Assembly (NCBI GenBank): GCA_963666345.1
Contig: OY762721.1
Location: 3,840,001 to 3,904,000 of the forward strand
Source: Desulfatiglandales bacterium
GTDB taxonomy: Bacteria > Desulfobacterota > DSM-4660 > Desulfatiglandales > Desulfatiglandaceae
Direction of reading: 5' to 3'
DNA length: 64,000 nt
Within the stretch, counting starts at the first letter, position 1; the number at the start of each line of letters is the position of its first letter. A program made the position numbers and the translations under genes. The notes beneath the pieces were generated by a model. It did not search any database, was not told the origin of the DNA, and worked only from the letters and a program-made list of their open reading frames with translations. Shown here in pieces: positions 3,579 through 62,579 of this stretch.

Positions 3579-3649
3579 TGCATGGAACCCGCCATGGGAA
3601 AAAGCCGAATCGGCTTTTCTTTTTTTAATCCATAAACGAGGCCGGCCTT

Positions 3650-11398: not shown

Positions 11399-11736
11399 CT
11401 TAAGTAATTCTTTTCAGCGGGAAGGGGTTTTGAAAAATTTAGATATCATTATCAGGTTTTTACAGACTAATCAATCGTATGATGGAACATATGACAACCA
11501 ATGACCTTTCCGCAGCATTTTGGACGGTAATTTTGTTTGAACGGATCATCCGGCCCTTTTGGCCGGAAGTCGGATAGGACATAATGCATTAGATAAAATT
11601 GTTTTTTATTAATCGTTCATGTTAATATCAGGCCTGATAACTTATATGAAAAGATGTGTTTAGGTGTCCTGCGGACCTTTTACGAAGCCGTCAACATCGG
11701 GTTACGCTGATCTGATACTGTTTACACCAGGGAGAA

Positions 11737-12570: not shown

Positions 12571-12576
12571 GCGGTT

Positions 12577-38665: not shown

Positions 38666-38871
38666 CGCTGGTGCCTATTATAGACATAGAGTTGTCCGCA
38701 AGGGATGTATTTTAAAAATTGTTAAAGGTAATGATGTCGAGGAGTCAGCTTTGCTTTTGTTGATAAGGAATTAGGAGGAAAATAGTCTAGGGGAAATAAT
38801 GCCTTCATGGTAATTCCACAAGACATTAATATATCTATTTGGTTTGGAGGTTTAAAAATCAAAACAGCAAA

Positions 38872-42117: not shown

Positions 42118-42869
42118 TTGAGACTCTCTACAAAAAAATGGCCATTCCTGATGCCTGTCACCTCGGGAAGCGCATCTTCAAGAAACTGTTTCACGAGAAC
42201 GCAAGGCTTGGCGCAACCGATAAGAAGGCATTTCGGGAGGACATTGATGTTATAATTTGGCAATACACGCTCAAGCCGAGCACGATTCCGATCCAGGCCT
42301 ACGAGGACGACCAGCGGGAGTACCACGAGGTTGCTATCCTACAGGTGAACCTCAAGACGCTCAATCGCACCAGCAGAATAGCTGAGATAATACATCGCGC
42401 GATTCCATACCCATTGGTTGTTGTGTTTACCTATAAGACAATGTGTACAATGAGCCTTGCCCACAAGCGATTCAGCCAAGCAGAAAAGGGGGCTATCGTT
42501 GCTGAGGACTTTCTCATCACCGATTGGATTGACCTTTTAGCTCCAACCCCCATACAGCAGGCATTCCTTGACAGCATAGCTCTGCCAGTCTTGCCGCACA
42601 CGCATTTCTATGCATTTTACTCAGCCTTAACTGACCGGACGGTGGCTTTGGATTGTGCCAGGCTGACCGGCGAGTATCGCCTCGAACCAATAACGATCAA
42701 GCACAAGGTGCGTAAGGACCAGTTGGCGCTCTGCCACGAGCTGGAAATTCAGATCGCAGGCCATAAAGCTACTATTATGAAAGAAACGCAATTCAATCGT
42801 AAGGTTGAGTTGAATATGAAAATGAAGGAACTTGAGAAACAACTTCAGGCTATAACTGCCAAGTTGTGA
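42114..42869 (+). CDS. DUF4391 family protein
   Basis: IHRAIPYP and C-terminal KETQFNRKVELN; ATGA overlap with the helicase; sits before mod. Confidence 0.8.
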   Translation: MIETLYKKMAIPDACHLGKRIFKKLFHENARLGATDKKAFREDIDVIIWQYTLKPSTIPIQAYEDDQREYHEVAILQVNLKTLNRTSRIAEIIHRAIPYPLVVVFTYKTMCTMSLAHKRFSQAEKGAIVAEDFLITDWIDLLAPTPIQQAFLDSIALPVLPHTHFYAFYSALTDRTVALDCARLTGEYRLEPITIKHKVRKDQLALCHELEIQIAGHKATIMKETQFNRKVELNMKMKELEKQLQAITAKL

Positions 42870-42885
42870 ATGGAGGATATATCGC

Positions 42886-44733: not shown

Positions 44734-44740
44734 GGTGTAT

Positions 44741-47700
44741 ATGATGAAATTTCAATTTGATCCGAACCTGGATTTCCAACACGAAGCGATCAATGCTGTG
44801 GTGGATCTTTTCGATGGGCAGGAAGTCTGTCAGACAAACTTTACAGTTGCACTTTTAAAGCATGATCCTCAAACTGTTTTGCCTGGGATGGAAAACGATT
44901 TAGGTATTGGCAACCGACTGCGTCTTTTAGATGAAGATATCCTCAAAAACATTAAAGAGGTCCAACTCCGTAACGGCCTCGCCCATTCCGAGTCGTTGGA
45001 CTCCATGGATTTCACGGTGGAAATGGAGACCGGAACCGGCAAGACGTATGTCTACCTGCGTACAATTTTCGAGATAAATCGGTTATACGGCTTCACGAAA
45101 TTCATCATTGTAGTGCCTTCGGTGGCAGTCAAGGAAGGCGTATACAAATCGCTCCAGATGACAGAGACGCACTTTAAGGGACTCTATGAAAACGTCCAAT
45201 TTGATTATTTCGTTTATGATTCCCAGAAACTCGGCCAGGTGCGAAACTTTGCTACCAGCGATTATATCCAGATCATGGTTATCAATATCGATGCTTTTCG
45301 CAAAAGCTTTACCGATCCTGAGAAAAAAGACAAGGCCAACATTATCCACCGGCCCCATGACAGGATGACGGGGAACCGTCCTATCGAATTCATCCAGGCG
45401 ACGAATCCTATTGTTATTATCGATGAACCTCAGAGCGTAGATACGACCAGCAAAAGCAAGGAGGCAATCGCATCTTTAAATCCGCTCTGCACCCTTCGTT
45501 ATTCTGCCACTCATGTGGACAAATATCATATGATGTACAAGCTCGACTCAGTGGACGCTTATCAGAGAAAGCTTGTGAAACAGATCGAGGTGTCTGGCAT
45601 TGAAGTAAAGGATAGCCACAATAAGGCATTCATCCGGTTACTTAAGGTTGATAATAGGAAGAGTCCGATTATCGCTCAGATTGAAATTGACGCGATGCAG
45701 CGCAACGGTGACGTCAAGCGAGTGAAAAAGACAATCCGCAGCGGGGATGACCTGCTGGAGCTTTCCGGAGGCCGGAGCGTTTACGATGGTTATATCATAG
45801 AAGACATCTATTGCGAAAAAGGAAATGAGTACATTAGCTTCACCAGCAAGCCTGAAATTATTAAGCTGGATCAAGCCATTGGAGAAGTAAACGAAGATGA
45901 ATACAAACGGCTGCAAATCCGGAAAACCATTGAAAAACACCTTGAAAAGGAGATGGAGCTTCGGCCTAAGGGACTGAAGGTGTTAAGCCTATTTTTTATA
46001 GATCGAGTTGCAAATTACCGCTGGTATGATGATGAAGGTAATCCACAACTTGGAAAATATGCAAAAATATTTGAAGAGGAATATAAACGGGAGGTTCGCA
46101 AGCCAAAATACAACATTTTGTTCGAGGGTGCTGATCTTGAAACCGCCGCTGAAGGGGTTCATGACGGCTACTTTGCGGTGGATAAGAAGAAGACGACTTC
46201 GGGGAAATCAATTGAAATATTTAAGGACTCACGTGGAGAAGGAAAAACGGTCGCCGATGAGAGTGCTTACCAGCTCATCATGCGGGACAAAGAAAAACTT
46301 TTAAGCTTTGACACAAAGCTGAAATTCATCTTTTCCCATTCTGCATTAAAAGAAGGATGGGATAATCCTAATGTTTTTCAGATTTGCACGCTCAACGAGA
46401 CCACATCGGTCATGAAAAAACGGCAGGAAATTGGACGTGGACTGCGAATAGCAGTGAACCAGGACGGTGAGCGAGTCCATGGTTTTGATGTGAACAGACT
46501 TACCGTGATGGCTAATGAATCTTATGAAGATTTTGCAAAACAGCTGCAAAAAGAGATCGAAAAAGAAACAGGTATAAAGTTCGGTGTGGTCGAGCAGCAT
46601 CTTTTCGCAAACATCGCGGTACAGACAGAAGACCACCAGCCCAAGTATCTTGGGATCGATGCGTCTCAGTTAATATGGAATCATTTAAAATCTAAAGGGT
46701 ATATAGATGCGAAAGGTAAAGTCCAGGATTCATTACGAGCCGACTTGAAGGAAGGCAATGTGGACCTGCCTGATGAGATGGCGGACTATTCCGGTCAGAT
46801 TTTGGCCGTTCTTCGGAAGGTTGCCGGGAAACTTAACATCAAGAATGCTGATGAACGCAAAAAGGTTGAACTGAACAAGGCCGTATTCCTCAGTGAGGAG
46901 TTCAAACAATTATGGGACAGGATAAAATACCGGACCACTTTCAGAGTTAATTTTGACTCCAAAAAACTGATCGAAAAATGTGCAGATGACATTTGCAAGT
47001 CACTAATGGTGGGGCGGGCAAGATTCATCACCAGGACGGCGACTCTTGATGTGGATAGGGGGGGCGTTAGTGCCGATGAAGTCCATAAAAGCACATCGAT
47101 TTACGATGCACACGACTATGACCTCCCCGATATTGTAAGCTATTTGCAGAACGAAACTAACCTCACTCGCCGATCGATCGTTGATATTATTATTGGCAGC
47201 GGACGCCTGCAGGATTTTAAGCATAACCCGCAGAAATTCATCGAGCAAGTTGCAGCTATCATAAAACACCAGATACGGATCTTTATTGTAGATGGAATCA
47301 AGTATCAAAAAATAGGGGATCAGCATTATTATGCCCAAGAGCTATATGAGGAAAACGAACTCTACGGCTATCTCAGTAAAAATATGCTTGAAAGCAAAAA
47401 GTCAGTTTTTAACCATGTTGTATATGATTCTGATGTGGAGGCCGATTTCGCGAGATCATTCGAGTTAAGCGATGATATTAAGGTCTACGCTAAACTGCCA
47501 GGATGGTTCAAAATCGATACACCACTCGGGAGTTACAATCCCGATTGGGCAGTTCTTGTCGAATTAGATGGTCAGCCACGGCTATATTTTGTGGTGGAGT
47601 CTAAGGGTAGTCTCTTTAGTGAAGCTCTTAGGGTGTCTGAAAACGCCAAAATCAAATGCGGACGTGAGCACTTCAAAGCATTGGAGAGCGATGTAGGGTT

Positions 47701-47755
47701 CATGATTGCAAATAATTTCACAACATTCTCGGAAAAGGTCACTGCGACCGAATAG
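44741..47755 (+). CDS. res: Type III R-M restriction endonuclease/helicase subunit
   Basis: VEMETGTGKT, IIDEPQ, YSAT, LKEGWD, QEIGRGLR and C-terminal YNPDW...VESKG nuclease motif. Confidence 0.93.
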   Translation: MMKFQFDPNLDFQHEAINAVVDLFDGQEVCQTNFTVALLKHDPQTVLPGMENDLGIGNRLRLLDEDILKNIKEVQLRNGLAHSESLDSMDFTVEMETGTGKTYVYLRTIFEINRLYGFTKFIIVVPSVAVKEGVYKSLQMTETHFKGLYENVQFDYFVYDSQKLGQVRNFATSDYIQIMVINIDAFRKSFTDPEKKDKANIIHRPHDRMTGNRPIEFIQATNPIVIIDEPQSVDTTSKSKEAIASLNPLCTLRYSATHVDKYHMMYKLDSVDAYQRKLVKQIEVSGIEVKDSHNKAFIRLLKVDNRKSPIIAQIEIDAMQRNGDVKRVKKTIRSGDDLLELSGGRSVYDGYIIEDIYCEKGNEYISFTSKPEIIKLDQAIGEVNEDEYKRLQIRKTIEKHLEKEMELRPKGLKVLSLFFIDRVANYRWYDDEGNPQLGKYAKIFEEEYKREVRKPKYNILFEGADLETAAEGVHDGYFAVDKKKTTSGKSIEIFKDSRGEGKTVADESAYQLIMRDKEKLLSFDTKLKFIFSHSALKEGWDNPNVFQICTLNETTSVMKKRQEIGRGLRIAVNQDGERVHGFDVNRLTVMANESYEDFAKQLQKEIEKETGIKFGVVEQHLFANIAVQTEDHQPKYLGIDASQLIWNHLKSKGYIDAKGKVQDSLRADLKEGNVDLPDEMADYSGQILAVLRKVAGKLNIKNADERKKVELNKAVFLSEEFKQLWDRIKYRTTFRVNFDSKKLIEKCADDICKSLMVGRARFITRTATLDVDRGGVSADEVHKSTSIYDAHDYDLPDIVSYLQNETNLTRRSIVDIIIGSGRLQDFKHNPQKFIEQVAAIIKHQIRIFIVDGIKYQKIGDQHYYAQELYEENELYGYLSKNMLESKKSVFNHVVYDSDVEADFARSFELSDDIKVYAKLPGWFKIDTPLGSYNPDWAVLVELDGQPRLYFVVESKGSLFSEALRVSENAKIKCGREHFKALESDVGFMIANNFTTFSEKVTATE

Positions 47756-47895
47756 ACAGATATAAAAAAGGAGAACCCAAAACCAGATAAACAAGATCTT
47801 TTAGACTCAAGTTGTTTGAAGGTAACGGAGGTTTTCTCGATTATAATACATTCCTTCCGCTCATAGTTAAAAATGCATCACCGAAGGAGGATGCC

Positions 47896-50055
47896 ATGCG
47901 GATGACAAAACTTACCATCTCAAACTACCGAGCTCTCAGAGATGTTTCGATTCCTTTGTCTCATTTCGGATGTTTGATCGGTGAGAACAATTCTGGAAAA
48001 TCATCCTTTCTCCAAGCATTATCCCTTTTTTTCTCCGGATCGAAGCTCTCTTCTAAAGATTATTTTGATGAATCACGCCCGATAAGCATTGAGATTGTTT
48101 TCGAAAATATTGAGGATGCTGACTTGGCACGTCTTGCCGAAGAGCACCGTACAAGGGTCAGTGGTATCCTAAATGATGGTCGTCTTGTACTCGTGCGATC
48201 CTATGGAACGGACGGAAAGAGCTCCCTGTTCTACGATATGCTCATGCCAACTGATGAGCGATTTTCCTCTGAGAGTTTAGGAAAGTTACTAAAAGGGCAA
48301 CGCCCTGGACCTGCATTTGTTGAAAAAGTTTCGAATACATTTCCAGAAATAAAGGACCTCATCGACACAAGCATGAATCAAGAGGCAATGAGGCAAAAAA
48401 TCCAGGATTTAGCTGACTCTTTGCCTGATGATCAGAAAGTAGCCACAGACATTCCCCTGCCAACTGGGATTGATAAAAGCATCATTCCAATGCTTCCAGA
48501 CCCTATATACATTCCGGCGGTCAAGGATCTGGCTGATGACATTAAAACAACGGAAAGCACCCCGTTCGGTAAAATACTGGCAATTCTGTTACGTGCTGTG
48601 GAGACTAAACTTCCAAATGCGCAAAAGTTGTTTGAAGAATTGAATTCAAAGCTCAACCGGGTTCAGAAGGCAGACGGAACAGTTGTTGACGGTCGCTTAG
48701 ACGAGGTCAAGCTTATCGAGTCGACAGTGGAGAAGTACGTCCGTGATAGTTTCGCCGATGTCGCGCTTCGTATAACAATACCCCCACCGGAATTAAAAAC
48801 TGTGTTCTCATCGGCCCGAATTTACGCGAATGATGGGGTTGATGGCTTGATTGAAACAAAAGGCGACGGCCTGCGGCGTGCTATTGTCTTTTCTATACTT
48901 CGTTCCTATGTCGAGCTGAATACAAAACTTGCGCCTACTGAAAGCGTTGAAGAAAAAGAACAGAAAAATATTGCACCAGCTTCATATTTGCTTCTTTTTG
49001 AAGAGCCTGAGCTATTCTTACATCCTAAAGGTCAACACATTTTGTTTGATGCATTGAGAGTGTTTGCCAAGGATCACCATGTGGTAGTAACCACACATTC
49101 CCCCATGTTTTTCGGTCCGAATGCCACAGAGACTTTTGTTAAGCTATACAAAAAAACGGATTTGAATGTTTCTGAAAAGCCGTTTACTCAAGTCCAGCCA
49201 GTAGACCTATCAGACATGAGATCCAAGGATCAGTTCCAGATTATATGCTTCGAGAACAATAATGCAGCATTTTTCGCTGATACGGTCATACTTGTCGAGG
49301 GTGACAGCGATTATCTGTTATTACCACATATCGCAAGAACCTTAAATCCAACCTGGGACATCGCGAAAATCCCTGTTCATTTTGCGCGAATTACCGGTAA
49401 GGGAAACATTCGACGCTATAGAGAATTCTTCAGACAATTTGATGTTAGGGTGCCTGTTATTGCAGACCTCGATCTACTGCTTAGCGGATTTCACCATGTC
49501 TCGCCGTCTAAAGAAATAAAATCCGCATGCAACAATCTTCTGGTGAAATTGGATGAGTTGATTGAACCTGATGCTGAAAATGAGGAGCCGACGGCTACGG
49601 AAGCACGTAAAGCGCATGATTCCGGAGAGTTAAGAGGGTTATGGAAAACTGTCCAAGAACGGCAAGCTCAATTTATAAAAGGTGAATGTGCACAAGACGA
49701 CCTCAACCAAGCTGTAGATAATTTCTTTGCCTGGCAGCGCAAGTCGGACCGTCTCGCCATATTGATGAATAGTGACGACTCGCAAATGCTGCGAATGAAA
49801 TGGCAGCTCCTTGAAATGTTAAGAAAGGAAGATGTGTATGTTTTGGAGCGTGGTGCGATTGAGAATTATTATCCAGATTATATTGCGGGACCCGATAAGC
49901 CATCCAAAGCAGAGGACTTCTGTGTGAAATGTAAGACCCGCGATGCAGTGCTCGACTGTTGCATTGAGCAGGAATTTGAGCGTGATGGTGAATTTATGAA
50001 AGAATCGGAATTTAATTTGATTTTTAGTTCCATCTTCCACGAAACGGAAAAGTAG
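47896..50055 (+). CDS. OLD-family ATP-dependent endonuclease (ABC-type ATPase + TOPRIM)
   Basis: GENNSGKS, KGDGLRR, LLFEEPELFLHP, TTHSP; TOPRIM LVEGDSD...IADLD; GGAGG RBS. Confidence 0.9.
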   Translation: MRMTKLTISNYRALRDVSIPLSHFGCLIGENNSGKSSFLQALSLFFSGSKLSSKDYFDESRPISIEIVFENIEDADLARLAEEHRTRVSGILNDGRLVLVRSYGTDGKSSLFYDMLMPTDERFSSESLGKLLKGQRPGPAFVEKVSNTFPEIKDLIDTSMNQEAMRQKIQDLADSLPDDQKVATDIPLPTGIDKSIIPMLPDPIYIPAVKDLADDIKTTESTPFGKILAILLRAVETKLPNAQKLFEELNSKLNRVQKADGTVVDGRLDEVKLIESTVEKYVRDSFADVALRITIPPPELKTVFSSARIYANDGVDGLIETKGDGLRRAIVFSILRSYVELNTKLAPTESVEEKEQKNIAPASYLLLFEEPELFLHPKGQHILFDALRVFAKDHHVVVTTHSPMFFGPNATETFVKLYKKTDLNVSEKPFTQVQPVDLSDMRSKDQFQIICFENNNAAFFADTVILVEGDSDYLLLPHIARTLNPTWDIAKIPVHFARITGKGNIRRYREFFRQFDVRVPVIADLDLLLSGFHHVSPSKEIKSACNNLLVKLDELIEPDAENEEPTATEARKAHDSGELRGLWKTVQERQAQFIKGECAQDDLNQAVDNFFAWQRKSDRLAILMNSDDSQMLRMKWQLLEMLRKEDVYVLERGAIENYYPDYIAGPDKPSKAEDFCVKCKTRDAVLDCCIEQEFERDGEFMKESEFNLIFSSIFHETEK

Positions 50056-50148
50056 TAGCAAAATGGTGTTAAAAAACAACGTGCCCAAATAGAAGACAGG
50101 GCAACTGAAACCCACGAATTTTTTCCGACCCTTTCAAATGCAGAAAGG

Positions 50149-51831
50149 ATGCGAAACATGACAAAGGAACCATCCCGTAATCAACAGCCTCAAAACACAA
50201 GTAATGTATTATCTACTCAACCGCCTTTTATCTGGCCGGAAGCGAGATGGCATACCAAAGACATTATTTACGAATACCACCCCCCATTCGATTCTTCCCT
50301 TATGGATGCTGATTTAATCAATGGTGTTATCGTGGGGGCTTGGAATGGGACCGTTGAATGGGTCAATACCTTAATGAAAAAAGACGGGGCCTGCGTGGTT
50401 GTTTTGGTTTTGGTTGTCTATCCTGCTTGCCCTACGCGAGAGGAGCATCTCCGGAGGTTATTGCAATTTCAAAATCAGCTAATTGGGGATGACAAAAAGC
50501 TCGAATTGCGTCTTCTGCTGTTTGACCGGTCCCATGGGAAGGATTTTGAGAGGATGGTGCTTCCACCCACCGTTCTTCAGGCGCATGATTCGAAATCAGG
50601 CAAGACCATGTTTTGCGTAGGTTCTGTTGGTGACTCCGGGCGAGATAAGGCAGAACTCGGCAGCTTCAATATGGCTTTTCAGCCGGACGACGGCTTACGT
50701 AACGAGTGGAGGAAATGGTTCCAATTTATTTTTTCTAGCTCCGCGCCACTTATGTCTGAGACCGCTCAAATACCACATCTCATACCCGAGGAGGGAGACC
50801 CTGCTGCAGCCAAGATATGGACTGCATTCAGTAACATATGCTTAGGATCATACGGAAATGAAGTTGCTCTGGCAAAGATAAATCCTGAAACAGGTGAGGT
50901 TTCGAAAGAACCGGATGGAACAGCCGTTGAACCATGGGACGATAACAAAACCAAGCTTGATCCCCTGGCGCAGTTGCTTCAACAGGTTTACTCGAACGGG
51001 TACTTGGTCACTATAGATGAAAGAACTAGAATCAAGCCCTTGGCCACCCCCGTGAAAGCTGCGTTGCTTGGCCAGAGGTCGGAACGAACAGTCGGGGCCC
51101 TTACTCAAAAGCAATCCTTCAAGCTGCAGGTTTTGGATGAATTACTAGACAAACAAATTGAAAAATGTCGTTTGGTTAACGATATTATGGAGTTGCTTAG
51201 CTACCTGCTGAGCATGGGGAATAGGTGGCTCCCTGAGGCTGCAAAAAGCCTTTTGGAGAAAGAACTGAAAGCGCGTAATGAAAGAGGCTGCGCCATCCTT
51301 AAGGAGGGGCTTGGTGGAAATGACGTTCGTGAGTTCATAAAAAAACGCCGGGATAAAATCCGGGATGATCTGGATGCGATGTATCGACAGCTTGGCCAAG
51401 GAAAATTTGTCCCAAACGACAGGGTTAAGAGCGTACTTGATGAAATCGAAGATCGTCTCACTGTAGCCCTGAATTCTCGCATCACCCCCTGTGCCATATG
51501 CAACAAGATCGCTCCACCCGATCTAACTTCCAGCGTTCCATCCGAGAACTGGAGCCAGCCGTTCTCTCTTCTGCTTCGATCGGCCCGCCTTATGCGAGAG
51601 TCCTTGATCGACAGCTATTTCCCCCGTAGGTTCAAGGGCCTTTCATTTAATGAAAATAATTTCCGAGATGCTATGAACATCTTTGACGATGCAATCGTCA
51701 AGGCGCCTTACTTGCATAGGGCTCGCGCTGAGCTGTTGGACCTCGAAAAGATTGAAAAGAGTTCCGAAGGACCAAAAGAAAAATGTACCGCCGTCTGGCG
51801 TATCATAACTGGAAAATTGCAGCCTGATTAG
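50149..51831 (+). CDS. Uncharacterised 560-aa protein, possible degenerate PLD-like N-terminal domain
   Basis: Intact long ORF co-oriented 93 bp after the OLD gene; GSVG...FN...EWRKWFQFIF pattern. The fold call is inference. Confidence 0.7.
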   Translation: MRNMTKEPSRNQQPQNTSNVLSTQPPFIWPEARWHTKDIIYEYHPPFDSSLMDADLINGVIVGAWNGTVEWVNTLMKKDGACVVVLVLVVYPACPTREEHLRRLLQFQNQLIGDDKKLELRLLLFDRSHGKDFERMVLPPTVLQAHDSKSGKTMFCVGSVGDSGRDKAELGSFNMAFQPDDGLRNEWRKWFQFIFSSSAPLMSETAQIPHLIPEEGDPAAAKIWTAFSNICLGSYGNEVALAKINPETGEVSKEPDGTAVEPWDDNKTKLDPLAQLLQQVYSNGYLVTIDERTRIKPLATPVKAALLGQRSERTVGALTQKQSFKLQVLDELLDKQIEKCRLVNDIMELLSYLLSMGNRWLPEAAKSLLEKELKARNERGCAILKEGLGGNDVREFIKKRRDKIRDDLDAMYRQLGQGKFVPNDRVKSVLDEIEDRLTVALNSRITPCAICNKIAPPDLTSSVPSENWSQPFSLLLRSARLMRESLIDSYFPRRFKGLSFNENNFRDAMNIFDDAIVKAPYLHRARAELLDLEKIEKSSEGPKEKCTAVWRIITGKLQPD

Positions 51832-52054
51832 GCGCACGTCCATAAATAATTGGAACTGACCTAAAAGCAGATGGCATTCAATAAAGAAATTTAAAATGAA
51901 TTAACAACTATAAATTATTAGCGCACCCTATGGCTTATCACGGGACGCTGGTAAAAATGTAAAAATGGGCGCTCCTTCTTTTATGCATCTCTATCAATAT
52001 TGATTGTTTTTAATTTATACCGTATTTTAATGAACCTTTGCTAAGGGAAATTTT

Positions 52055-55000
52055 ATGGGTGGAAAGGCAAACAACTTCCAGTGGGACCACGAACATGTCC
52101 GTCGTATAAGAAAGGAAAAAGAAAGGTACAGAGGTGACAAGGATAAAGAGAACCTTTTAAAAATGGTCACCGAAAGTGTCTACAGCGAAGAAACCCATTA
52201 CGTTCTTGAGTTGATTCAGAATGCGGAGGACGAGGGGGCAAAAGCCATCACGTTCACCATTACGAATGATTCAATCATAGTTGAAAATGACGGAGAACCC
52301 TTCTCGGCTGATGATGTTTTCTCGATCTGTTCCGCTGGCCAGAGCAGAAAGGAAAATAAAATTGGCTTCTTCGGTATCGGTTTCAAGTCGGTCTTCAATA
52401 TCACCAAGAATCCTCAGGTTATATCAGGCAAGTATAATTTCCAGATAAGCGAATACATCTATCCTGACACGACCGATGAAGTGCCTGTTTCGATTGAGAG
52501 CTTCGACCAGTCAAGAGGAGCTTCCTTCGTTCTGCCAATCAATGCCATGAAAGGTTTAAATGGAAAGAGGCTTGCGAAAGGCCTCTACGAGGTGAATGAA
52601 AGACTGATGCTTTTCCTCCAAAGTTTGGAGAGAATAGTCTTAAATGACATGACAGGGGAGGAGGGGAAGACTTGGGAGATAAGGAAAGAGGAGCTTGTAG
52701 GTGGCTTCATAAGGATTGTGAATACGGGAACGGGATTAACCAGTACATGGAAAGTATTCAGGAAGACAGTAAGGGTACCACCTAACAAGGATATCCGGGT
52801 CAAGGGTAAGGAAAAGGCCGTGCGGTCGACGGTAGTCATAGCTTTTCCTCATCCGGTTGAAGACACTGATGTTAAGGCCGAGAAAGTCTATTGTTTCCTT
52901 CCCACAAGAACAAGGACAGACCTCCCTTTTCTTATACAGGGGGATTTCATTCCGACTCTCGGACGTGAGAGTATCGAGAAGAATGAGTGGAACCGTTGGC
53001 TTCTAAAGAAATTAGGGGAGCTTGCAGCCGAGAGCATTTTAGACATGAGAGAGGATAAGCTGTTCTCAAAACAGCTCTACAACCTAATTCCACTCCCGGA
53101 CGAGGTTTTGGACGAAATAATAAGAAAAGTCCCTGAAACTATATTAGCTAAGCTCCGGAAGAAGCGGATTGCAGCCTGCGAGGGCTCATGGGAAAAGATC
53201 CAAGATGCAGTAATGCTCGACCAAGGCTTAAGCGGGCTCATCTCAGAGAGGGACTTGAAAGCGTTTTACCGAAGGAAAGTACGCAAGGTCAAAGATGAAT
53301 TGGATGACAGGGCAAGAAAGGTCCTTACTGAGTTTGGTGCAAGACGGTTTGGTGTAAAAGAAATCGTGGGTTTGCTTAAGCTTACACAAGTCATCAGATC
53401 GAAGAAGGGGGAATGGTTCCTGGATGTCTATGACTACCTAAAAAGCAAAAAGAACGGCCATTGGAGGGGGAATAGTATCTGGAAAGAAATTCAGGTTTTG
53501 AAATTCCTGCGCACCAGCACCGGCGAGCTTGTAGCCCCCAAAGACGAGAGGAGGCCCTTCAGGCTGCTTACCCATTATCCGCAGAAGAAAGACATAGGCA
53601 ATCTGGATAAGATATTCGACGAGGGCGAGCTCATTTTTCTGGACAAATTCTTTCAGCTTGCGAAAAAGAGAGCCAATGCGCGAATAGATCCTGAGCTGGA
53701 GGAAAAGAGACGAAGGGTCAAGGATTTTCTCAAGGAATACGGCGTAGAAAAATTAATGGAGGAGTACCACATAATAGACAAGGTGGTTCTTAACAGCTTT
53801 GATTCCAGAAGATGTAAACGATTCAGCAAGAAGAAGCTTGTGATATTCACAAACTTTATCAGAGAAAACATGTCCCTCTATGCCAATAGAATAAGATCGC
53901 AGAGGTCAGGTATTTCTGATGACAAGGTATTCGAGGACATCAGACAGAGGCTGTTCCTCAAAGGGTTCTATTTCGAGAATGGTAAAAGAAAGGAGGACCT
54001 GTTCAGGCCCGAGGAGCTTTATTTCTATAAGATTAAAGGTGAAATCACGGATATCTATAAGCTTTTCAAAGGTATAGATGGAATGCCGTTCCTTTCCCCT
54101 GCCTATTATGAAGAAAAGTTCGTTAAGGGATATTCAACCGTCGATACCGGACAAAGGCGGGGAAGGGTGAGGGAGGTACCTGAATGGGACGATTTTTTCA
54201 GAGAAATGGGAGTCTGGTCTTCGCCGAGGCTGCTTGCTCAAGACATAAACATTGACGAGGGCGAACTGAAATACAAAAACATCTCTTTTCAGTATTCGAC
54301 AGAGGGTCACAAGCTGATTGATGACCACTATTTCCCGGACCTGAAGACCTTGGTCGAAAGCCTGGAACGCGAGAAACCTCAAACAAAGCATTCCAAAATG
54401 AAGGTGTTCCTGAATCTTGTTGGCAGAAGCTGGGACAGAGAGTACAAGAAAAGGGCAACGTCCAGATACAGACGGTTCTATTACACCCAATATATCACTG
54501 AAGTGAACTTCTCTTCATTCATCAACCAGATGAAGTGCCTAGAATGGGTACCAACGGAAAATCTGTTCAGTCTATTTAGGCCCGGGCAATGCTATGTGGG
54601 TACTTCGGAGAACAAACTCCTGCTCAGCGAGGATACCCCATTCGTTCTAAACTTGTCTGCATACAGGGCGTTATATAAGGCGATAGGGGTGAATGATTCT
54701 CCTACTACAGAACATCTCCTGAATTACCTAGTCGAGCTCAAGAAAGAATGGAAAGGTGATTATTTCCCCGCTGACTGGCTGGGGAAGATGGAAGCAATAT
54801 ACGGTTTCCTGTATGAAGATATCAAGAAGGACAAGGACCTTTTGGAATCGGCTGCGATATTACAGAAATTCCAGAGCGAGGATTTGATTTTTCTGCCAAC
54901 GGAAAGGAGAAACTGGTGGAGCATTAAGGACGTTTATTGGAATAAATTTGACAAGGTATTTTCATGGATGAAAGGCTACCTCTCCCCGGAGTATCGGCCT

Positions 55001-56608
55001 GAGCTTGAGGGCTTTTTCAGGGTAATAGGGGTCAAGCAATCCCCCGACCTTGAGGACCTTGTGGGCATTCTTGAAGAGATAAGACATTCATACGTTAAAA
55101 GGCCTACCGGTAAAGATGCGCTTGAGCTCAAAGGAATAATCGATCCTGTTTATAGTGAGATGTCGGAGAGACTTAAAGAGGCCATTCCAAACGAAGTAGC
55201 AGCGAATGTCCATCTATTTGACAATGAAATTTTCCTAGCCTCGGACAATAGCTTCGCATCACCAGGTGCGCTGGTTTACTGCGATAATGAGAAACTCAGA
55301 CGGATGTTCGGTGAAAACGCAAAGATCATGTGGCTGAGGTCTGATTGGAGAAAGCTTTCTCCCTTGTTTATAGAATCAAAAATTGACAGTCTTTCAAGCA
55401 GGGTGAGAGTGAAACTGGGGAAGGGGGTCGAAAGGGATATCACGGATGAAGAAAAGGAAACCATAAATTCACTATCTGAATATATTGGCGCATACATTAA
55501 ATACTTCGATCCAAGCGGTTACGCCACAGTTGAGAAAAACAATGAGCTTCGAAGGATTGGTGAAATGGAAGTCAAGCTGGTATCTAGCCTTTCCCTCAAG
55601 CATGTGTTTTCTCCGAAAGGGGATAAAAGAAGATTTACGGTCACTGAGCCTAATGCCGAAGCCCATTATGATGAGGGAAGCAATACTTTGTACGTGCTGG
55701 ATGCCGAAGATTGGTTAGAAAACTTCTGTATTACTATAGGTGGAGAGGTTTGCAGGATACTGAAGTCAACGAGCTTGCCAATCGGGACCCAGATAGAATC
55801 GCTTCTATCAGCAGGATGTGATGAGCAATTACGTGACAGGAAGTTTGCCTCGTTCGATATCCCGCAAGATGTCTTGAGGGATTTCATAGAGCCTGGCGAA
55901 CAAAGACTGAAGAAAGGAAAGGAATCAGCTTCAGGAGAAGCCGACAAAGATAAGCGTGAACCCGAGATAGATACTGACAACCAGAAAGAGGAAAGTGGTG
56001 AGAAGGATGTTACTAGGGGACGTAAACCTTCGGACACCTTCAGTTTCAAGGAAGAGGAATTGATATCCTCTGATGAAATCGTAAAATTCAGGTACAACAA
56101 GAAAGGCGAGACTGCCATAGATATCGATATAGAGAGGCAAAAAGGGAAGCCTCAAGGAAAGCCTAAATCCGGTTCCAGAGGTAGCGGGGGAACCACCAGA
56201 TTTTCAAAATCAGTTATCTCTAGGCATGAAACAGAAAGTAGGGCGATTGAAATAGTCGAGATGTACGAATCAGAAAGGGGGCGCGACCCAAAGGATGTAA
56301 GAAAGGATGGAGTAGGCTATGATGTCGATTCATCTGATAGGAAGATAGAAGTAAAATCATTCAAGGGCAGTCCCGGAGCAATAGAACTTTATTATAGCGA
56401 GTATGATGCAGCTAAAGTTTACGGCGAAGATTTCTATATTTATGTTGTGTATAATATGCTCAAGGGAAGCCAACCAAAGATAGAAATAATTAGAGACCCT
56501 TTTAATTCTGTGGTTTTTGTGGCCCAAAAGAGAACCGCTAAAAATTGGAAAAATTCTATTATAGAAGAAGTTGAAGTTTTGAGTAAAATTGAAGACAAGG
56601 TAGATTAG
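52055..56608 (+). CDS. Sacsin/No-vein-like GHKL ATPase with C-terminal DUF3883-type nuclease domain
   Basis: ELIQNAED, NDGEPFS, IGFFGIGFKSVF, FLIQGDF; C-terminal GVGYDVDS...IEVKS...EY.AA...YIYVV. Confidence 0.85.
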   Translation: MGGKANNFQWDHEHVRRIRKEKERYRGDKDKENLLKMVTESVYSEETHYVLELIQNAEDEGAKAITFTITNDSIIVENDGEPFSADDVFSICSAGQSRKENKIGFFGIGFKSVFNITKNPQVISGKYNFQISEYIYPDTTDEVPVSIESFDQSRGASFVLPINAMKGLNGKRLAKGLYEVNERLMLFLQSLERIVLNDMTGEEGKTWEIRKEELVGGFIRIVNTGTGLTSTWKVFRKTVRVPPNKDIRVKGKEKAVRSTVVIAFPHPVEDTDVKAEKVYCFLPTRTRTDLPFLIQGDFIPTLGRESIEKNEWNRWLLKKLGELAAESILDMREDKLFSKQLYNLIPLPDEVLDEIIRKVPETILAKLRKKRIAACEGSWEKIQDAVMLDQGLSGLISERDLKAFYRRKVRKVKDELDDRARKVLTEFGARRFGVKEIVGLLKLTQVIRSKKGEWFLDVYDYLKSKKNGHWRGNSIWKEIQVLKFLRTSTGELVAPKDERRPFRLLTHYPQKKDIGNLDKIFDEGELIFLDKFFQLAKKRANARIDPELEEKRRRVKDFLKEYGVEKLMEEYHIIDKVVLNSFDSRRCKRFSKKKLVIFTNFIRENMSLYANRIRSQRSGISDDKVFEDIRQRLFLKGFYFENGKRKEDLFRPEELYFYKIKGEITDIYKLFKGIDGMPFLSPAYYEEKFVKGYSTVDTGQRRGRVREVPEWDDFFREMGVWSSPRLLAQDINIDEGELKYKNISFQYSTEGHKLIDDHYFPDLKTLVESLEREKPQTKHSKMKVFLNLVGRSWDREYKKRATSRYRRFYYTQYITEVNFSSFINQMKCLEWVPTENLFSLFRPGQCYVGTSENKLLLSEDTPFVLNLSAYRALYKAIGVNDSPTTEHLLNYLVELKKEWKGDYFPADWLGKMEAIYGFLYEDIKKDKDLLESAAILQKFQSEDLIFLPTERRNWWSIKDVYWNKFDKVFSWMKGYLSPEYRPELEGFFRVIGVKQSPDLEDLVGILEEIRHSYVKRPTGKDALELKGIIDPVYSEMSERLKEAIPNEVAANVHLFDNEIFLASDNSFASPGALVYCDNEKLRRMFGENAKIMWLRSDWRKLSPLFIESKIDSLSSRVRVKLGKGVERDITDEEKETINSLSEYIGAYIKYFDPSGYATVEKNNELRRIGEMEVKLVSSLSLKHVFSPKGDKRRFTVTEPNAEAHYDEGSNTLYVLDAEDWLENFCITIGGEVCRILKSTSLPIGTQIESLLSAGCDEQLRDRKFASFDIPQDVLRDFIEPGEQRLKKGKESASGEADKDKREPEIDTDNQKEESGEKDVTRGRKPSDTFSFKEEELISSDEIVKFRYNKKGETAIDIDIERQKGKPQGKPKSGSRGSGGTTRFSKSVISRHETESRAIEIVEMYESERGRDPKDVRKDGVGYDVDSSDRKIEVKSFKGSPGAIELYYSEYDAAKVYGEDFYIYVVYNMLKGSQPKIEIIRDPFNSVVFVAQKRTAKNWKNSIIEEVEVLSKIEDKVD

Positions 56609-57066
56609 GTGAATCGCAGGTAAAAAAAGCGTTTCGACGGTCTCACTCTCAGATGAGAGCGACTAGATTGTAAAAGAGGGACGGTGTTGATTTGTTGCGT
56701 TTCCCGCTGAGGGTTTAACGGCCTTTTGAAATAGTTCCCAGAATGTGGACGGGCGGGCAGGCTGTATGTTTTTCCTGACGCATATTTTCCTAAGCAACCT
56801 TTAAAGGGCAATCTCCATGGCCTGTAACAGACCTATGGCTTTACGCCTTACATACAGGTCATTATACTGTATAAAGACCATGGAAAAATATGGTGAAAAA
56901 TAACTGCTAGAAAAGTCCCAATGCTTTCTAAAAACCGCTTTCCGGCAGGACTTCAGTGCTCCACAACCACCTGGAACACCACGTTTCCAGCCGCCGGAAA
57001 GGTTCGGTTGCAGGCGGGTTTTTTTCATGTCCTCGATCAGTTTCGTTTGTTCCGTTTTGGCAAGAC

Positions 57067-57095
57067 TTGAGGTGCAGGCTCACGTCGGATATAAT
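57067..57095 (+). promoter_or_regulatory. Sigma70-type promoter
   Basis: TTGAGG, 17-bp spacer, TATAAT, upstream of the AAGGAGG RBS. Confidence 0.55.
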
Positions 57096-57123
57096 ACAAA
57101 CCGTGCCGGCACAAGGAGGCTCC

Positions 57124-57342
57124 ATGAAGGATATCATCGTTCAATGCACGTGTGGGCGGAAATGCCGGGTTGATGCCTCGGATGGATCCACCTGGCGATG
57201 CCCAGAGTGCGGAAGAATCGTCAGCCTTCCCAGCAAGGAGAATGATCCCTCCCGAAGGGACAGCATGGAAAGCTTTGTCGATGCGACTTTTGAGCTCTTA
57301 AACGAGGTAGACGGGGCTTTTCCCACGTCCGGGGCGCGGTGA
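57124..57342 (+). CDS. Small zinc-ribbon protein (72 aa)
   Basis: CTCG...CPECG; strong AAGGAGG RBS and its own promoter. Confidence 0.6.
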   Translation: MKDIIVQCTCGRKCRVDASDGSTWRCPECGRIVSLPSKENDPSRRDSMESFVDATFELLNEVDGAFPTSGAR

Positions 57343-58079: not shown

Positions 58080-58886
58080 ATGGAACGAACAAAAGAACAT
58101 AGATATTTTATTCAGTCCTTGGCTAAAGGATTGGCTGTATTTGAGGCTCTTGCAGAGGCACAGTCTCCTATTACTCTTTCAGAGATCGCCCAGGCTCTTG
58201 GTACTAATAATGCTACGGCAACGAGGCTCTGTTATACCTTAACGAAATTGGGATTCCTCAGTCGTGATAAACAGAAGCTGTACCACTTAACACCAAAAGT
58301 TCTTGCTTTAGGATCTCACTCCATATGTACTTTGGGTTGGCAAAATATAGCTCAATACTATTTGGAGAATCTTTTCGAGGAGATTCAGGAAACGGTAAGC
58401 CTGTCGATTTTAGACGGTATGGATGTTTTGTATGTAATCAGAATCAGAAAAGAACGCCATCTGCCTTTTGATATTCGGATAGGAACCAAGCTTAAAGTAT
58501 ATTACTCAGCAATGGGAAAGGTGCTTATGGCAATGGGAAATCAAGAAAAAACGCAAAATATATTAAAAGCATTAACCTTTGACCCTTTAACTAATCATAC
58601 TATTAATAGCTTAGATAACTTTTGTGTGGAATTGGATGAGGTTCGGAAAAGAGGTTATGCCATTAATGATGAAGAACTTTCCATCGGAAATCGTGCAATT
58701 GCAGCTCCTTTGGTTGATGCAGAAGATGTTGCAGTGGCAGCGATAAACATCGCTGTTCCGACCATACGATACAGCAGAATGGATTTGGAGGAACGTCTTG
58801 CACCTAAATTAATTAAGGTTTCAGGGGAAATTTCCAAAGCTTTGATTCAATCAGATATGTCTATCGTTTTAGGCGAAGAAACTTAG
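58080..58886 (+). CDS. IclR-family transcriptional regulator (PcaR/PobR-like)
   Basis: FIQSLAKGL.V, HTH, SAMGKVL, RGYAINDEE...G.RAIAAP. Confidence 0.92.
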   Translation: MERTKEHRYFIQSLAKGLAVFEALAEAQSPITLSEIAQALGTNNATATRLCYTLTKLGFLSRDKQKLYHLTPKVLALGSHSICTLGWQNIAQYYLENLFEEIQETVSLSILDGMDVLYVIRIRKERHLPFDIRIGTKLKVYYSAMGKVLMAMGNQEKTQNILKALTFDPLTNHTINSLDNFCVELDEVRKRGYAINDEELSIGNRAIAAPLVDAEDVAVAAINIAVPTIRYSRMDLEERLAPKLIKVSGEISKALIQSDMSIVLGEET

Positions 58887-58992: not shown

Positions 58993-59487
58993 ATGAACAA
59001 CTGGTTGAAAGGTAAAAAGGCCGTAGTTATCGGAGAAAGGGATGGAGTTCAGGGGCCATCAATTGCAAAGTGTCTTGAGGCAGCAGGTTCAGACGTCGTA
59101 TACGCTGTGACTGAGTGCTTTGTCTGAACGGCTGCCGGAACAATGGATGCGGAAAATCAAGCCCGAGTGAAGAACATCGCTGAAGATTCGAGTGATGAAG
59201 ATAGCTCAAACAACATCATTGTTGTGCTAGGCGCTAGTGATATAGAAGGGGCATTGATTTCAGCGGAAACGGTCACTGAAGGTGACCCGAGCTTTACCGG
59301 TCCATTGGCAGGGGTCTCGTTGAGGCTCCCAGTTTACCATATATTGGAACCAGAGATGAGGGATGCCATTCCAGAGGGAATCTATGAGGAAAATGTTGGG
59401 ATTTGGGCAATGACTGTGGACACCGACACGATAGGCGAGGAGTTCAGAGCAATTCGTGAAAAAGCTTTGAGAAAATCTTCTGGATAG
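58993..59487 (+). CDS. grdA: Glycine/sarcosine/betaine reductase selenoprotein A (Sec at TGA 59125-59127)
   Basis: MNNWLKGKKAVVIGERDGVQGPSI...TECFV-U-TAAGTMD.ENQ.RVK...ETVTEGDPSFTGPLAGVSL; GGGAGG RBS. Confidence 0.93.
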
Positions 59488-59533: not shown

Positions 59534-60826
59534 ATGAGACTTCAGATCGAATCCATTGATATAAAAGATGTAAAGGTTGGCTCAAAGAGTTATGTGCTTG
59601 AACATGTGTTGCATCTTAGTCTTCTTGATTTAAAGGAGTTAATTTTAAAAGACGTCAGAATCAGTTCTGTTGAAGTCGATGTGGTATTTCCAGGCGATCA
59701 GGTACGCATTGTAAATTTGGTTGATGTGATTCAGCCACGATGTAAGATAGATCTAGAGGATGCGGATTTCCCCGGTTTTATTGGAAAAGTTAATACGGCT
59801 GGTCATGGGAGAACAAGGTCTCTCCGGGGTGTAGCCGTTCTGGTAGCCGACCCCCAGACTACGAGGAAGTATTCTGCATTTCTCGATATGGCTGGTCCAG
59901 CGGCCAAGCTCAGCCGCTATGCTAAAATGCCGAATATCGTAGTTGCCCCACAGAAGACAGAAAATACGGAGGAACGGGATTTTGAGGACGCCGTAAAGAT
60001 AGCGGGGCTGAAGACAGCGGTTTATTTGGCTCAGGCCGCTGAGGGTCATCCAGTTGATGACACTGAGGTATTCGATCTTGATCTGCCTCGCTTGCCAAAG
60101 GATTCGAACCTTCCCCGAATTGCCTATTACTATCAGCTCTACAGCCCTCAGCACGATCATCATGGCATTTCAGACAAGTGCTTTTATGGTATTGAGGTTG
60201 GCAATCTTCTTCCTACCATAATCCATCCGAATGAAATCCTGGATGGTGGAGTAACCGGCCATCAAACGATCAGAAGTCTTGACACTTACAGCATCCAGAA
60301 CCATGGCGTCGTCAAGGAACTGTATCGACGTCATGGGAAGGATTTGCTCTTCGCTGGCGTCGTTTGCGGGGTGGCGAACATGGAGCCTGTTCAGCGGCAA
60401 CGCAAAGCGATGATGGCTGCAAACCTCATTGCTCACGTGCTAGGGGCCAACGGCTCGATCCTCACGAAAATTCATGGTGGTATGCCACATGTTGATCTCG
60501 CCTTGGTCGGAGAAGAGTGTGAAAAGCGGGGAGTGAAAACAACGTTGTTCGTACAGCCGCTGGTTAGCCAGGGTACACTGTCTGAGACCTCTCTGTTCAG
60601 CTCCGAGTTGCTCGATGCTATAATTGTAGTAGGCGCCACTCAGGAGAGGATCAAGGTGCGATTTCAGCCGGAGAGAATCCTAGGTGGCACAAAGGAGACG
60701 CATCTTTTTACCCCGGATCCATTTGTTCAAAAAGCTGGGGAATCCGTCATAGACACAGAAGAGTTTCTGATAGCCGGTATTCATGACCACATAGGCGGGG
60801 CAAAGATTATCGCAACCGAGTACTAG
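59534..60826 (+). CDS. Reductase component B proprotein (GrdE/GrdG/GrdI family)
   Basis: MRL....I.IKDV, DVIQPR, G.GRT..L.GVAV, DMAGP.A, HPNEILDG, TY..QN. Confidence 0.88.
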   Translation: MRLQIESIDIKDVKVGSKSYVLEHVLHLSLLDLKELILKDVRISSVEVDVVFPGDQVRIVNLVDVIQPRCKIDLEDADFPGFIGKVNTAGHGRTRSLRGVAVLVADPQTTRKYSAFLDMAGPAAKLSRYAKMPNIVVAPQKTENTEERDFEDAVKIAGLKTAVYLAQAAEGHPVDDTEVFDLDLPRLPKDSNLPRIAYYYQLYSPQHDHHGISDKCFYGIEVGNLLPTIIHPNEILDGGVTGHQTIRSLDTYSIQNHGVVKELYRRHGKDLLFAGVVCGVANMEPVQRQRKAMMAANLIAHVLGANGSILTKIHGGMPHVDLALVGEECEKRGVKTTLFVQPLVSQGTLSETSLFSSELLDAIIVVGATQERIKVRFQPERILGGTKETHLFTPDPFVQKAGESVIDTEEFLIAGIHDHIGGAKIIATEY

Positions 60827-60852
60827 TTCGAACGTTAGGAAGGAAAGAAACC

Positions 60853-62214
60853 ATGAGCGATAAGAAATTGAGAGTAGCTTACTATCTCAACCAGTTTTTT
60901 GGTCAGGAGGGGCGTGAGGAGAAGGCTGACATGAAGCTGATGCTCAAAGAAGGGTCGGTGGGCCCTGGCTTGGCTCTTCAGAATGCTTTGGGGGGAGAGG
61001 CAGAGGTGGTAGCCACCATAGTCGGCGGTGATAACTACGTGGCTACCCATACGGAGGATGCCTCAGCTGAAGTCCTCAGGCTTCTAAAACCCTACAAAAT
61101 CGATTTGTTCTTCGCGGGACCTGCATTTGAGGCAGGACGTTATGGTATAAGCTGCGGGGCCTTGTGTAAAGCAGTGGGAGAAGCGCTTGGGATTCCGGCA
61201 ATTACCGGAATGTATGAGGAAAATCCAGGAGTGGAACTCTACCGAAAGACCAGTTATGTCGTCAAGACAGGGAATTCGGCTATAAAAATGGCCGCAGATC
61301 TGGGGAGAATGGTGGCAATTGGAAGGAAGTTGCTAGGTGAGATAGATGCATCGAGGCTGCTTTCAGGGGAAACGATTGGGCAACCTTCGGAGGATGGGTA
61401 TTTCCCGCGTGGGTTGGTTAAAAATGAATATGTGGAAAAGACGGCTGCTGAACGCGGGGTAGATATGCTCCTAGCGAAACTGGGAAATCTGGACTTTGTC
61501 AGCGAGTTGCCGTTGCCCAAATTTGAAAGGATACCACCTCCGCCTCCGGTAATGGACATCACTTCCTGCGAGGTTGCTCTCGTGAGTGATGGTGGCCTGT
61601 GTCCGAAGGGGAATCCGAATGGCTTGAGCGGTCGGGGAAACAAGATTTGGTGCACCTACGAAATAGATAGCTTATTCTCGAAGGATGTTACTGAGATCGA
61701 GTGCGAAGTGGTACACACCGGATACTATCCGCTGGAGGTTATGGAGAATCCTTTCAGACTGGTACCTGTTGACGTTCTACGGGACCTCGAAAGGGAAGGA
61801 GTTATAGGAAAACTGCACCCAACCTACTTCTGTACCTCCGGCAATGCTACGATCGCAAAGGTGTGTAAGGACATGGGCGATGAGATAGCTACTGAACTCC
61901 TTAACAGAGGTATTCAGGCTGTCATCCTTACGTCAACATGAGGTTCAAGCACTCGTTGCGGGTCAACGATTGCCTCAGCCATAGAAAAAATAGGCATTCC
62001 TGTTGTACAGATTACCGCGGTACCACCAGTGGCTAAAATGGTGGGAGTTAATCGCGCTCTCCGGGGGCAAAAGGTTACCAATGTATTGGGCGATAGTAAT
62101 TTACCTCCGGATAAGGAGAAAGAGCTAAGGCGACGTTACATCAATCGTTCCCTTGAAATCCTGCAATTAAATGTAAAAGAACCACAAATGTTCACGTTGG
62201 ACGGAATAGAATAG
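60853..62214 (+). CDS. Reductase component B selenoprotein (GrdB/GrdF/GrdH family; Sec at TGA 61939-61941)
   Basis: YLNQFFGQ.G.EEKAD, AGPAFEAGRYG, ILTST-U-GSSTRCG continuing in frame to 62214. Confidence 0.92.
61939..61977 (+). promoter_or_regulatory. Bacterial SECIS element
   Basis: Stem gcactcgttg/caacgattgc (1 mismatch) with a G-containing CGGGT loop 17 nt after UGA; TGAG also pairs with CTCA. Confidence 0.75.
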
Positions 62215-62255: not shown

Positions 62256-62579
62256 ATGGCAAACGAAATAACTGGCGAAAAGTTCGATGAACAAGTTGTT
62301 CAGTCTGAACGGCCTGTACTTGTTGATTTTTGGGGGCCCCTGTGTGGTCCCTGCTTGGCTATGATGCCAGCAGTGGAGGAACTAGAGCGTAAGTACGCTG
62401 ATAAAATCAAGCTCGTCAAAATAGATGCGTCCCGGAACAAGAGATTCTGTTTAACTCTAAAGGTTTTAGGCCTTCCCACCTATCTATTTTATAAAGATGG
62501 CAAAGAGGTGGGTCGTCTTACCGGAGAACATGCTGCCATTGACAACATCGAAGCTACATTGAAGAAGATGATTGGGTAG
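62256..62579 (+). CDS. trxA: Thioredoxin (reductase-associated)
   Basis: VDFWGPLCGPC, GLPT. Confidence 0.88.
   Translation: MANEITGEKFDEQVVQSERPVLVDFWGPLCGPCLAMMPAVEELERKYADKIKLVKIDASRNKRFCLTLKVLGLPTYLFYKDGKEVGRLTGEHAAIDNIEATLKKMIG

Follow-up and report, generated by a model that had tools for sequence, protein, structure and literature searches.

A Grd-type selenoenzyme with an uncharacterised component B in a Desulfatiglandales genome

What kind of substrate is handled by a reductase of the Grd type whose component B carries neither the cysteine at which the proprotein is normally cleaved nor the usual selenocysteine (Sec, U) motif? The question is raised by two adjoining genes near the end of the window, that is, the whole 64,000-nucleotide stretch of the Desulfatiglandales bacterium genome analyzed here, which encode the alpha subunit and the selenoprotein of component B. 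As described below, the locus is real and ordinary-looking, and encodes an uncharacterised form of an enzyme system that is already known. The component B features, called with TGA read as Sec as for all window genes, are as follows.

59534..60826, + strand: component B alpha subunit (GrdE/G/I/FarE superfamily), 430 aa, PF09338 at 287.5 bits
60853..62214, + strand: component B selenoprotein (GrdB/F/H/FarB superfamily), 453 aa, PF07355 at 412.9 bits, Sec363 encoded by TGA 61939-61941
61939..61977, + strand: possible Sec insertion sequence (SECIS) hairpin starting at the UGA, fold of -14.2 kcal/mol

Active-site signatures and relatives of component B

The alpha subunit reads ...IIHPNEILDGGVTGHQTIRSLDTYSIQNHG..., a stretch devoid of Cys, and its cleavage-region loop, HPNEILDGGVTGHQTIRSLDTY, likewise contains none. 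Upon alignment, T245 occupied the column of the cleavage Cys within a loop three residues shorter than that of the GrdE type, and the self-cleaving SGN|C site that gives GrdE-type subunits their pyruvoyl group was absent at the sequence level. The selenoprotein reads ...ILTST-U-GSSTRCGSTIASA, with the active-site motif TST-U-GSSTRCG, and thus carries U-G-S-S-T-R-C in place of UxxCxxC, the motif named for GrdB in a 2026 review (PMC13188914). Both readings had been quoted exactly in the original prediction, which was made from the sequence alone and took SGNC and UxxCxxC as the canonical states. We verified the canonical motifs on sequences: among 301 genomes of the window's phylum scanned for selenoprotein B, 17 were positive, the canonical GrdB of four reference loci (L056-L059; numbers with L denote loci) read U-G-T-C-T-R-C, and the alpha partners of L056, L058 and L059 read SGNCVSACDKN (none was recovered for L057).

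The two deviations were found throughout the relatives of these proteins. The Cys-aligned column was occupied by Thr in 15, Ala in four, Pro in three, and Ser and Val in one each of the 24 genome-derived clade rows, and by Thr in 75, Ala in two, Ser in two and Pro in one of 80 metagenome genes, these being the best 80 of 207 relatives confirmed among 247 metagenome candidates; any Cys within 11 residues after DG[GA] was present in just one of the 80. The clade is thus without a conserved nucleophile at the cleavage column, though Thr dominates its core, and the loop residues vary by subclade (xHT[IV]R, GWLAIK or [YF]LPxK). Ser at U+3 was invariant (25/25 clade rows and 60/60 of the metagenome genes covering the site). 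The Cys-less alpha subunit and the Ser at U+3 hence mark the whole clade and are not due to chance. At the sequence level, this agrees with the cofactor-independence proposed at the outset, and a substrate that does not need a Schiff base would be the simplest reading of the alpha subunit. The system had also been called atypical, but across the superfamily the lack of the Cys is no rarity: an exhaustive HMMER search yielded 929 representative clusters, and only seven of the 113 full-length ones closest to the query had Cys at the cleavage column, so that the pyruvoyl site has commonly been lost in the family's unexplored part.

Under translation table 11, the selenoprotein ORF splits into 60853..61941 and 62029..62214. 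The fold of the SECIS candidate (z of -1.3; 23 of 200 shuffles folded equally well) is weak evidence by itself, and Sec decoding is predicted instead from the in-frame TGA and the frame downstream of it, both of which are conserved. A pseudogene was considered and rejected, as the alpha and selenoprotein frames are both intact and conserved.

Comparison with NCBIfam models placed the proteins outside every substrate-specific family. The only model whose cut-off the selenoprotein exceeded was the umbrella subfamily TIGR01918 (438.6 vs. 65.45 bits). On the GrdB equivalog TIGR01917 it reached 396.3 bits against a cut-off of 602.2, whereas the control GrdB proteins of L056-L059 scored 617-637 bits, and it attained 399.3 bits against 775 on the GrdH model NF040795. 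The sarcosine reductase models gave 443 vs. 800 for the selenoprotein (GrdF, NF040794) and 225.1 vs. 780 for the alpha subunit (GrdG, NF040793), which scored 188.5 bits on the FarE model NF053623 (cut-off 675), on which true FarE loci scored 694-937 bits. Five further clade members gave the same outcome. Of the 113 full-length sequences in a list of 150 representatives, 111 were compared with the models and none surpassed any specific cut-off, the nearest being P0255 (622.5 vs. 675, FarE) and P0217 (630.8 vs. 780, GrdG). A search for solved structures returned none at E <= 1 for either component B subunit, and the ESM Atlas gave generic PF09338 clusters only.

To place the clade, quick IQ-TREE trees were built from 53 rows for B and 48 rows for E, leaving out eight reference loci as near-identical and four contigs as duplicates. 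Far references were the loci above the FarE cut-off found in 12 of 151 Synergistota genomes, and betaine reductase references were Synergistota loci with 708-738 bits on the GrdH model in six-frame reading, just below its cut-off of 775. Both trees separated GrdB, the GrdH-like proteins and the other UxxC/G/A types from the clade, the L026/L029 pair and FarEB with a support of 99. A careful tree of concatenated E and B sequences from 36 loci split off the group of Far, L026/L029 and the clade at 100/99 and the clade itself at 100/100, and an approximately unbiased (AU) test rejected the joining of the clade with the GrdH-like group at p 0.012, a group that was named after the tree had been seen. 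The E, B and concatenated trees are all unrooted; within that frame, FarEB appears to be the closest characterised relative of the clade. At the sequence level the window proteins share the FarEB-like traits, namely no cleavage Cys and Ser rather than Cys at U+3: in Far loci the alpha loop is deleted (WRYWE-PNY) and FarB reads U-G-T-S-S-R-C or U-G-T-S-S-R-G. PMC10838667 likewise describes a FarE that is no proprotein and a FarB without CxxC, and, along with PMC13188914, states that FarE and GrdI lack cleavage cysteines. GrdH-like references read U-G-T-C-T-R-C, with alpha partners in the GrdI state (SGSF-MPVSSK, no Cys at the cleavage column) in 12/12 loci.

The suggestion of an undescribed branch thus held, with scores below every substrate-specific cut-off and a fully supported separate clade. 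The phylogeny that had been called for set the clade apart from GrdB/GrdE and the GrdH-like group, and named a nearest relative, FarEB, that the original prediction had not considered. A full-text literature search retrieved no description of the clade nor of a Grd system without GrdD; the term "creatine reductase" turned up once, in a genome note. The new points are the relationship with FarEB, the Ser that both have at U+3, and the lack of acetate kinase (Ack) and Pta across the whole genome.

Operon and the predicted acetyl output

Component B lies in an unbroken same-strand gene row at the window's end, running from an IclR regulator through grdA, the PF09338 and PF07355 genes and trxA to grdC, the other members of which are given below.

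58080..58886, + strand: IclR-family regulator, first gene of the conserved cluster, PF09339+PF01614
58993..59487, + strand: grdA, selenoprotein A, motif C-F-V-U, TGA 59125-59127, NF040748 at 197.5 bits (cut-off 130)
62256..62579, + strand: trxA, thioredoxin with CGPC, PF00085 at 88.4 bits
62603..64000, + strand: grdC, short "type I" form, 477 aa, extending 36 bases beyond the window end, NF040746 at 642.6 bits (cut-off 450)

The IclR regulator scored 222.9 bits on the PcaR/PobR subfamily model, under its cut-off of 284.75, and the trxA product 121.7 bits on the clostridial TrxA model (cut-off 140). On the 3' side of grdC, the genome continues with trxB (TIGR01292, 381.5 vs. 343.45), a TAXI binding protein (genome positions 3905142-3906134), a DUF1850 protein and a fused tripartite ATP-independent periplasmic (TRAP) permease, so that the downstream transporters whose inspection had been advised were indeed found past trxB. 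These are followed by genes for a methylmalonate-semialdehyde dehydrogenase (MMSDH)-like aldehyde dehydrogenase, a 3-hydroxyisobutyrate dehydrogenase (HIBADH)-like dehydrogenase, AcnX and a UxaA-like dehydratase. Of the partners of component B in a Grd complex, GrdA, GrdC, TrxA and TrxB are all present, with GrdA, GrdC and TrxB over their NCBIfam cut-offs. Both Pfam domains of the superfamily, the in-frame TGA at the active site and a genomic tRNA-Sec gene are also in place, and the locus holds the sole PF09338 gene and the sole strong PF07355 gene of the single-contig, 4.16 Mb genome.

The original prediction had GrdA and GrdC forming acetyl phosphate, which the gene content of the genome does not support. 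The model NF040747 for GrdD, the subunit that forms acetyl phosphate, found no match in the genome, and tblastn with three GrdD sequences matched the plsX locus alone (39-40 bits), plsX being the sole PF02504 gene; acetate kinase was not found in the genome, and Pta gave a weak match there on plsX only. At least four full-length ADP-forming acetyl-CoA synthetase-like genes were present, as was dsrAB (1921872-1924255), and the organism would seem to reduce sulfite or sulfate and to draw ATP from acetyl-CoA in a different way. Two types of GrdC were distinguished. Type I proteins (own genome and 12 loci) were 477-500 aa long, 68-78% identical to the window's GrdC, lacked about 30 C-terminal residues and carried Cys285 in 13/13 cases, vs. 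1/9 in type II proteins (nine loci; 493-538 aa, 44-48% identical). GrdD over the cut-off was found in 0/10 genomes with type I GrdC vs. 3/3 with type II, the latter serving as positive controls; in L010, L022 and L023 the type II gene is followed by a PF02504 GrdD gene. Acetyl phosphate is hence an unlikely product here, and from the absence of GrdD, acetate kinase and Pta we infer that the acetyl group would be released to CoA, giving acetyl-CoA.

Some features near the row stand apart from it. Between the IclR gene and the defence genes upstream lies a 128-aa ORF (window 56956-57342) with no Pfam match, and directly upstream the window contains a defence-island-like row (38839-56608) encoding a SNF2/ResIII helicase (1092 aa), a DUF4391 protein, an N6/N4 DNA methylase, a 1014-aa ResIII protein that carries a RE_endonuc domain and a 747-aa OLD-family nuclease (AAA_15+TOPRIM). 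The same row encodes a protein of 560 aa without Pfam matches and one of 1517 aa that has a sacsin-like domain at its N-terminus and a NOV_C domain at its C-terminus.

Proposed mechanism and candidate substrates

On these grounds, we propose that a carboxylate of the type X-CH2-COO-, whose leaving group X does not require a Schiff base, would be imported by the adjacent TRAP-TAXI system. Sec363 would displace X directly, with no pyruvoyl group involved, to form a Se-carboxymethyl intermediate, and the carboxymethyl group would then pass to the Sec of GrdA. The short type I GrdC would convert it to an acetyl thioester for release to CoA rather than as acetyl phosphate, and GrdA would be re-reduced by TrxA, TrxB and NADPH. 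Taken jointly with this whole scheme, it is probable that the locus encodes a working two-selenoprotein reductase of the Grd type with its component B in an uncharacterised clade sister to FarEB. More speculatively, and with clearly lower confidence, it would combine a new specificity for a common anionic C2 acid with a GrdD-independent protein C that delivers acetyl-CoA directly, for which reductive desulfonation of sulfoacetate would be our first guess and reductive C-O cleavage of glycolate or oxyacetates the alternatives.

The neighbourhood of the clade genes bears on the substrate. The order IclR-grdA-E-B-trxA-grdC recurs across clade loci, and among 105 such loci, 53 of which span at least 10 kb, the neighbours included IclR (53), GrdA (42), GrdC (42), TrxA (38), TctA (17), a TRAP permease (15), TAXI (12), a Liv-type permease (11), a major facilitator superfamily (MFS) transporter (11), GntR-FCD (11), an AMP-ligase (9), GrdD (8), MmgE/PrpD (6) and acetate kinase (5). 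A tripartite tricarboxylate transporter (TTT) or TRAP system accompanied 25 of the 53 longer loci. Dehydrogenases flank some operons, as in L017 (iron-containing alcohol dehydrogenase, Fe-ADH, and an MMSDH-type enzyme), in L012 (Fe-ADH and AOR) and with the MMSDH-like and HIBADH-like genes of the window's own genome. NCBIfam searches of 24 neighbour proteins returned no substrate-specific name except for an MMSDH-subfamily CoA-acylating aldehyde dehydrogenase near the L017 operon (539 vs. 448.5 bits), the TAXI protein matched generic TAXI entries only among solved structures, and Rfam found neither a riboswitch nor another family at gathering score in nine loci, with one sub-threshold chance hit in the window. 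The transporters and flanking dehydrogenases thus point to an organic anion, without naming which. Corrinoid or methyl-transfer genes also lie by some operons and may be incidental: RACo-type proteins (L013:6620-8170 and L032:6711-8273), a B12-binding protein (L008:10230-10952) and URO-D/MtaA-like proteins (L019:15128-16096 and L171:13551-14597).

Our best guess is an anionic, non-amine 2-substituted acetate. Among named leaving groups, sulfonate (sulfoacetate yielding sulfite) heads the list at low confidence, because a TTT system has been proven to import sulfoacetate in Bilophila (PMC10413351) and the window's genome contains DsrAB; neighbours resembling sauRSTU (IclR, AMP-ligase, MFS) might conceivably hint at the same substrate. 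An O-linked group (glycolate or an aryl- or alkyl-oxyacetate) is more doubtful, on a par with a halide (chloro- or fluoroacetate), while a substrate outside all the classes named in this section is possible and ranks above each of them.

The best surviving rival would make the system a functional orthologue of fluoroacetate reductase, that is, a reductive dehalogenase of fluoro-, chloro- or bromoacetate in which Sec displaces the halide. The clade is sister to FarEB in three trees, the cleavage Cys is missing from both alpha subunits, U-G-T-S-S-R-C is identical in L012, L015 and the FarB of L094-L096, and an MFS gene lies in 11 of the 105 loci, farA being an MFS antiporter according to PMC10838667. 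However, the alpha subunit falls far below the FarE cut-off with a FarE identity of only 30-31%, the FarE loop WRYWE-PNY differs from that of the clade, and no radical-SAM farC-like gene occurs among the 45 largest neighbour clusters. Moreover, high-affinity binding-protein importers with IclR/GntR regulators, met with in soils as well as sediments, suggest an acid that is common in nature and not a rare toxin. We therefore regard dehalogenation as doubtful.

Still less probable is the betaine-like substrate of the original prediction, i.e., a divergent betaine-type reductase for glycine betaine, dimethylglycine or a sulfonium acetate, in which X would be an onium group. Although a Cys-less alpha subunit is also the GrdI state (PMC10838667; SGSF in 12/12 GrdH-linked partners) and the RACo (L013, L032), B12-binding (L008) and URO-D-like (L019, L171) genes could speak for such chemistry, the selenoprotein reached about half of the GrdH cut-off (399 vs. 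775), the GrdH-like references keep UxxCxxC, and the AU test with its post hoc group opposed a joint clade. In addition, no BCCT/OpuD-type carrier was detected among the 45 largest neighbour clusters, the importers being of the TRAP-TAXI, TTT, Liv-type ATP-binding cassette (ABC) and MFS types.

Finally, a glycine reductase, e.g., of a reductive glycine route, with no Cys-derived pyruvoyl group and perhaps processed at Thr245, is improbable: this is the sole Grd system of the genome, Thr fills the Cys column in most members and relatives are named "glycine reductase" by their sources, but the selenoprotein lies well below the GrdB equivalog cut-off (396 vs. 602.2), Ala, Val or Pro replaces that Thr in 8/24 genome-derived members whose partner is unchanged, SGNC and UxxCxxC are retained in the canonical GrdB/GrdE found within the phylum, and GrdD, Ack and Pta are lacking here, unlike in D. 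desulfuricans G11, for which PMC7547702 reports Pta, Ack and a glycine reductase complex that includes the two subunits of protein C.

Several observations weigh against direct, cofactor-free reduction of one anionic C2 acid to acetyl-CoA. Because Thr fills the Cys-aligned column in most members (15/24 and 75/80), Thr-based self-processing may occur in the core clade. The transporter types vary among the loci (TRAP, TTT, Liv-type ABC, MFS), as do the subclade loop residues, so that the clade may not share one substrate, and amino acids or amides are frequent ligands of Liv-type binding proteins. The genome of the Synergistota member is without DsrA, a poor fit with a general sulfite-yielding role. 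As for the output, the metagenome-assembled genomes (MAGs) in which GrdD was sought (0/10 with type I GrdC) may be incomplete, and the clade members L010, L022, L023, L024, L027 and L028 sit with type II GrdC and GrdD, L022 also with acetate kinase, so that component B would be compatible with acetyl-phosphate formation elsewhere. The Far branch is long (1.2 changes per column), and the sister placement could partly be a long-branch effect; the raw identity to canonical GrdE/GrdB (32-34%/42-43%) is no lower than that to FarE/FarB (30-31%/39-40%).

Distribution, significance and comparison with known systems

A word-indexed search returned over 120 clusters that share 62-81% identity, almost all of them precisely 430 aa in length and carrying generic or "glycine/sarcosine reductase" names. 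The 30 genome loci of the clade, found with an alignment query, all come from MAGs, mostly of Desulfobacterota (Syntrophales, Desulfobacterales, Desulfobaccales or Desulfovibrionaceae); two Bacillota, a single Synergistota and a distant Anaerolineales are also among them. Members of the clade abound in sediments, soils and peat. The Synergistota MAG (L012) holds two identical selenoprotein B copies (2468-3823 and 11317-12672) about 9 kb apart, with a Liv-type ABC transporter and an Fe-ADH between them. In L027, the selenoprotein B gene (11316-12587) is split into several frames, and a second, frameshifted B-like copy (L011:8195-9546) lies upstream of the intact pair of L011; these broken genes could reflect decay or assembly errors.

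Because clade genes are labelled "glycine reductase" or "sarcosine reductase" in metagenomes, metabolic reconstructions from the MAGs of Desulfobacterota, Chloroflexota and other groups may be mistaken when they assign them glycine reduction or a reductive glycine pathway. Given its abundance and dedicated high-affinity importers, the clade probably acts on an environmentally relevant compound. Grd systems conserve energy through acetyl phosphate according to the textbook rule, which is called into question by the consistent loss of GrdD, together with that of Ack and Pta in the window's own genome. If our proposals are correct, desulfonation of sulfoacetate would supply a sulfite reducer with an acetyl unit and, in the sulfite released, also with an electron acceptor, and the bypass of acetyl phosphate would represent a second output mode of Grd chemistry. 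The FarEB link further suggests that Sec enzymes able to cleave C-X bonds with no carbonyl cofactor make up a wider family, which would be relevant to dehalogenation and to the chemistry of C-heteroatom bonds.

Compared with the known systems, glycine reductase (GrdB/GrdE) resembles the window system in its Pfam families, in the Sec residues of A and B and in its GrdA, GrdC and thioredoxin partners; its SGN|C proprotein site, UxxCxxC motif and GrdD are all lacking here. Betaine reductase (GrdH/GrdI, Peptoclostridium acidaminophilum type) has an unprocessed alpha subunit with no pyruvoyl group, as predicted for the window system, and shares the use of GrdA, protein C and thioredoxin, whereas its GrdH retains UxxCxxC, its GrdI loop is of full length (SGSF MPVSSK), and the pair stands on the opposite side of the main tree split. 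The fluoroacetate reductase FarE/FarB (Cloacibacillus porcorum MFA1, Synergistota) likewise has a Sec-containing component B of two subunits, lacks the cleavage Cys in its alpha subunit, carries Ser at U+3, and joins the clade in the E, B and concatenated trees. Its identity to the window proteins is, however, only 30-31% (E) and 39-40% (B), its alpha loop is deleted further than that of the clade, and second-type Far loci have also lost the last Cys (U-G-T-S-S-R-G). The operon partners differ as well, these being the MFS gene farA and farC in the Far system, and the IclR regulator, grdA, trxA, grdC and the TRAP genes in the system described here.

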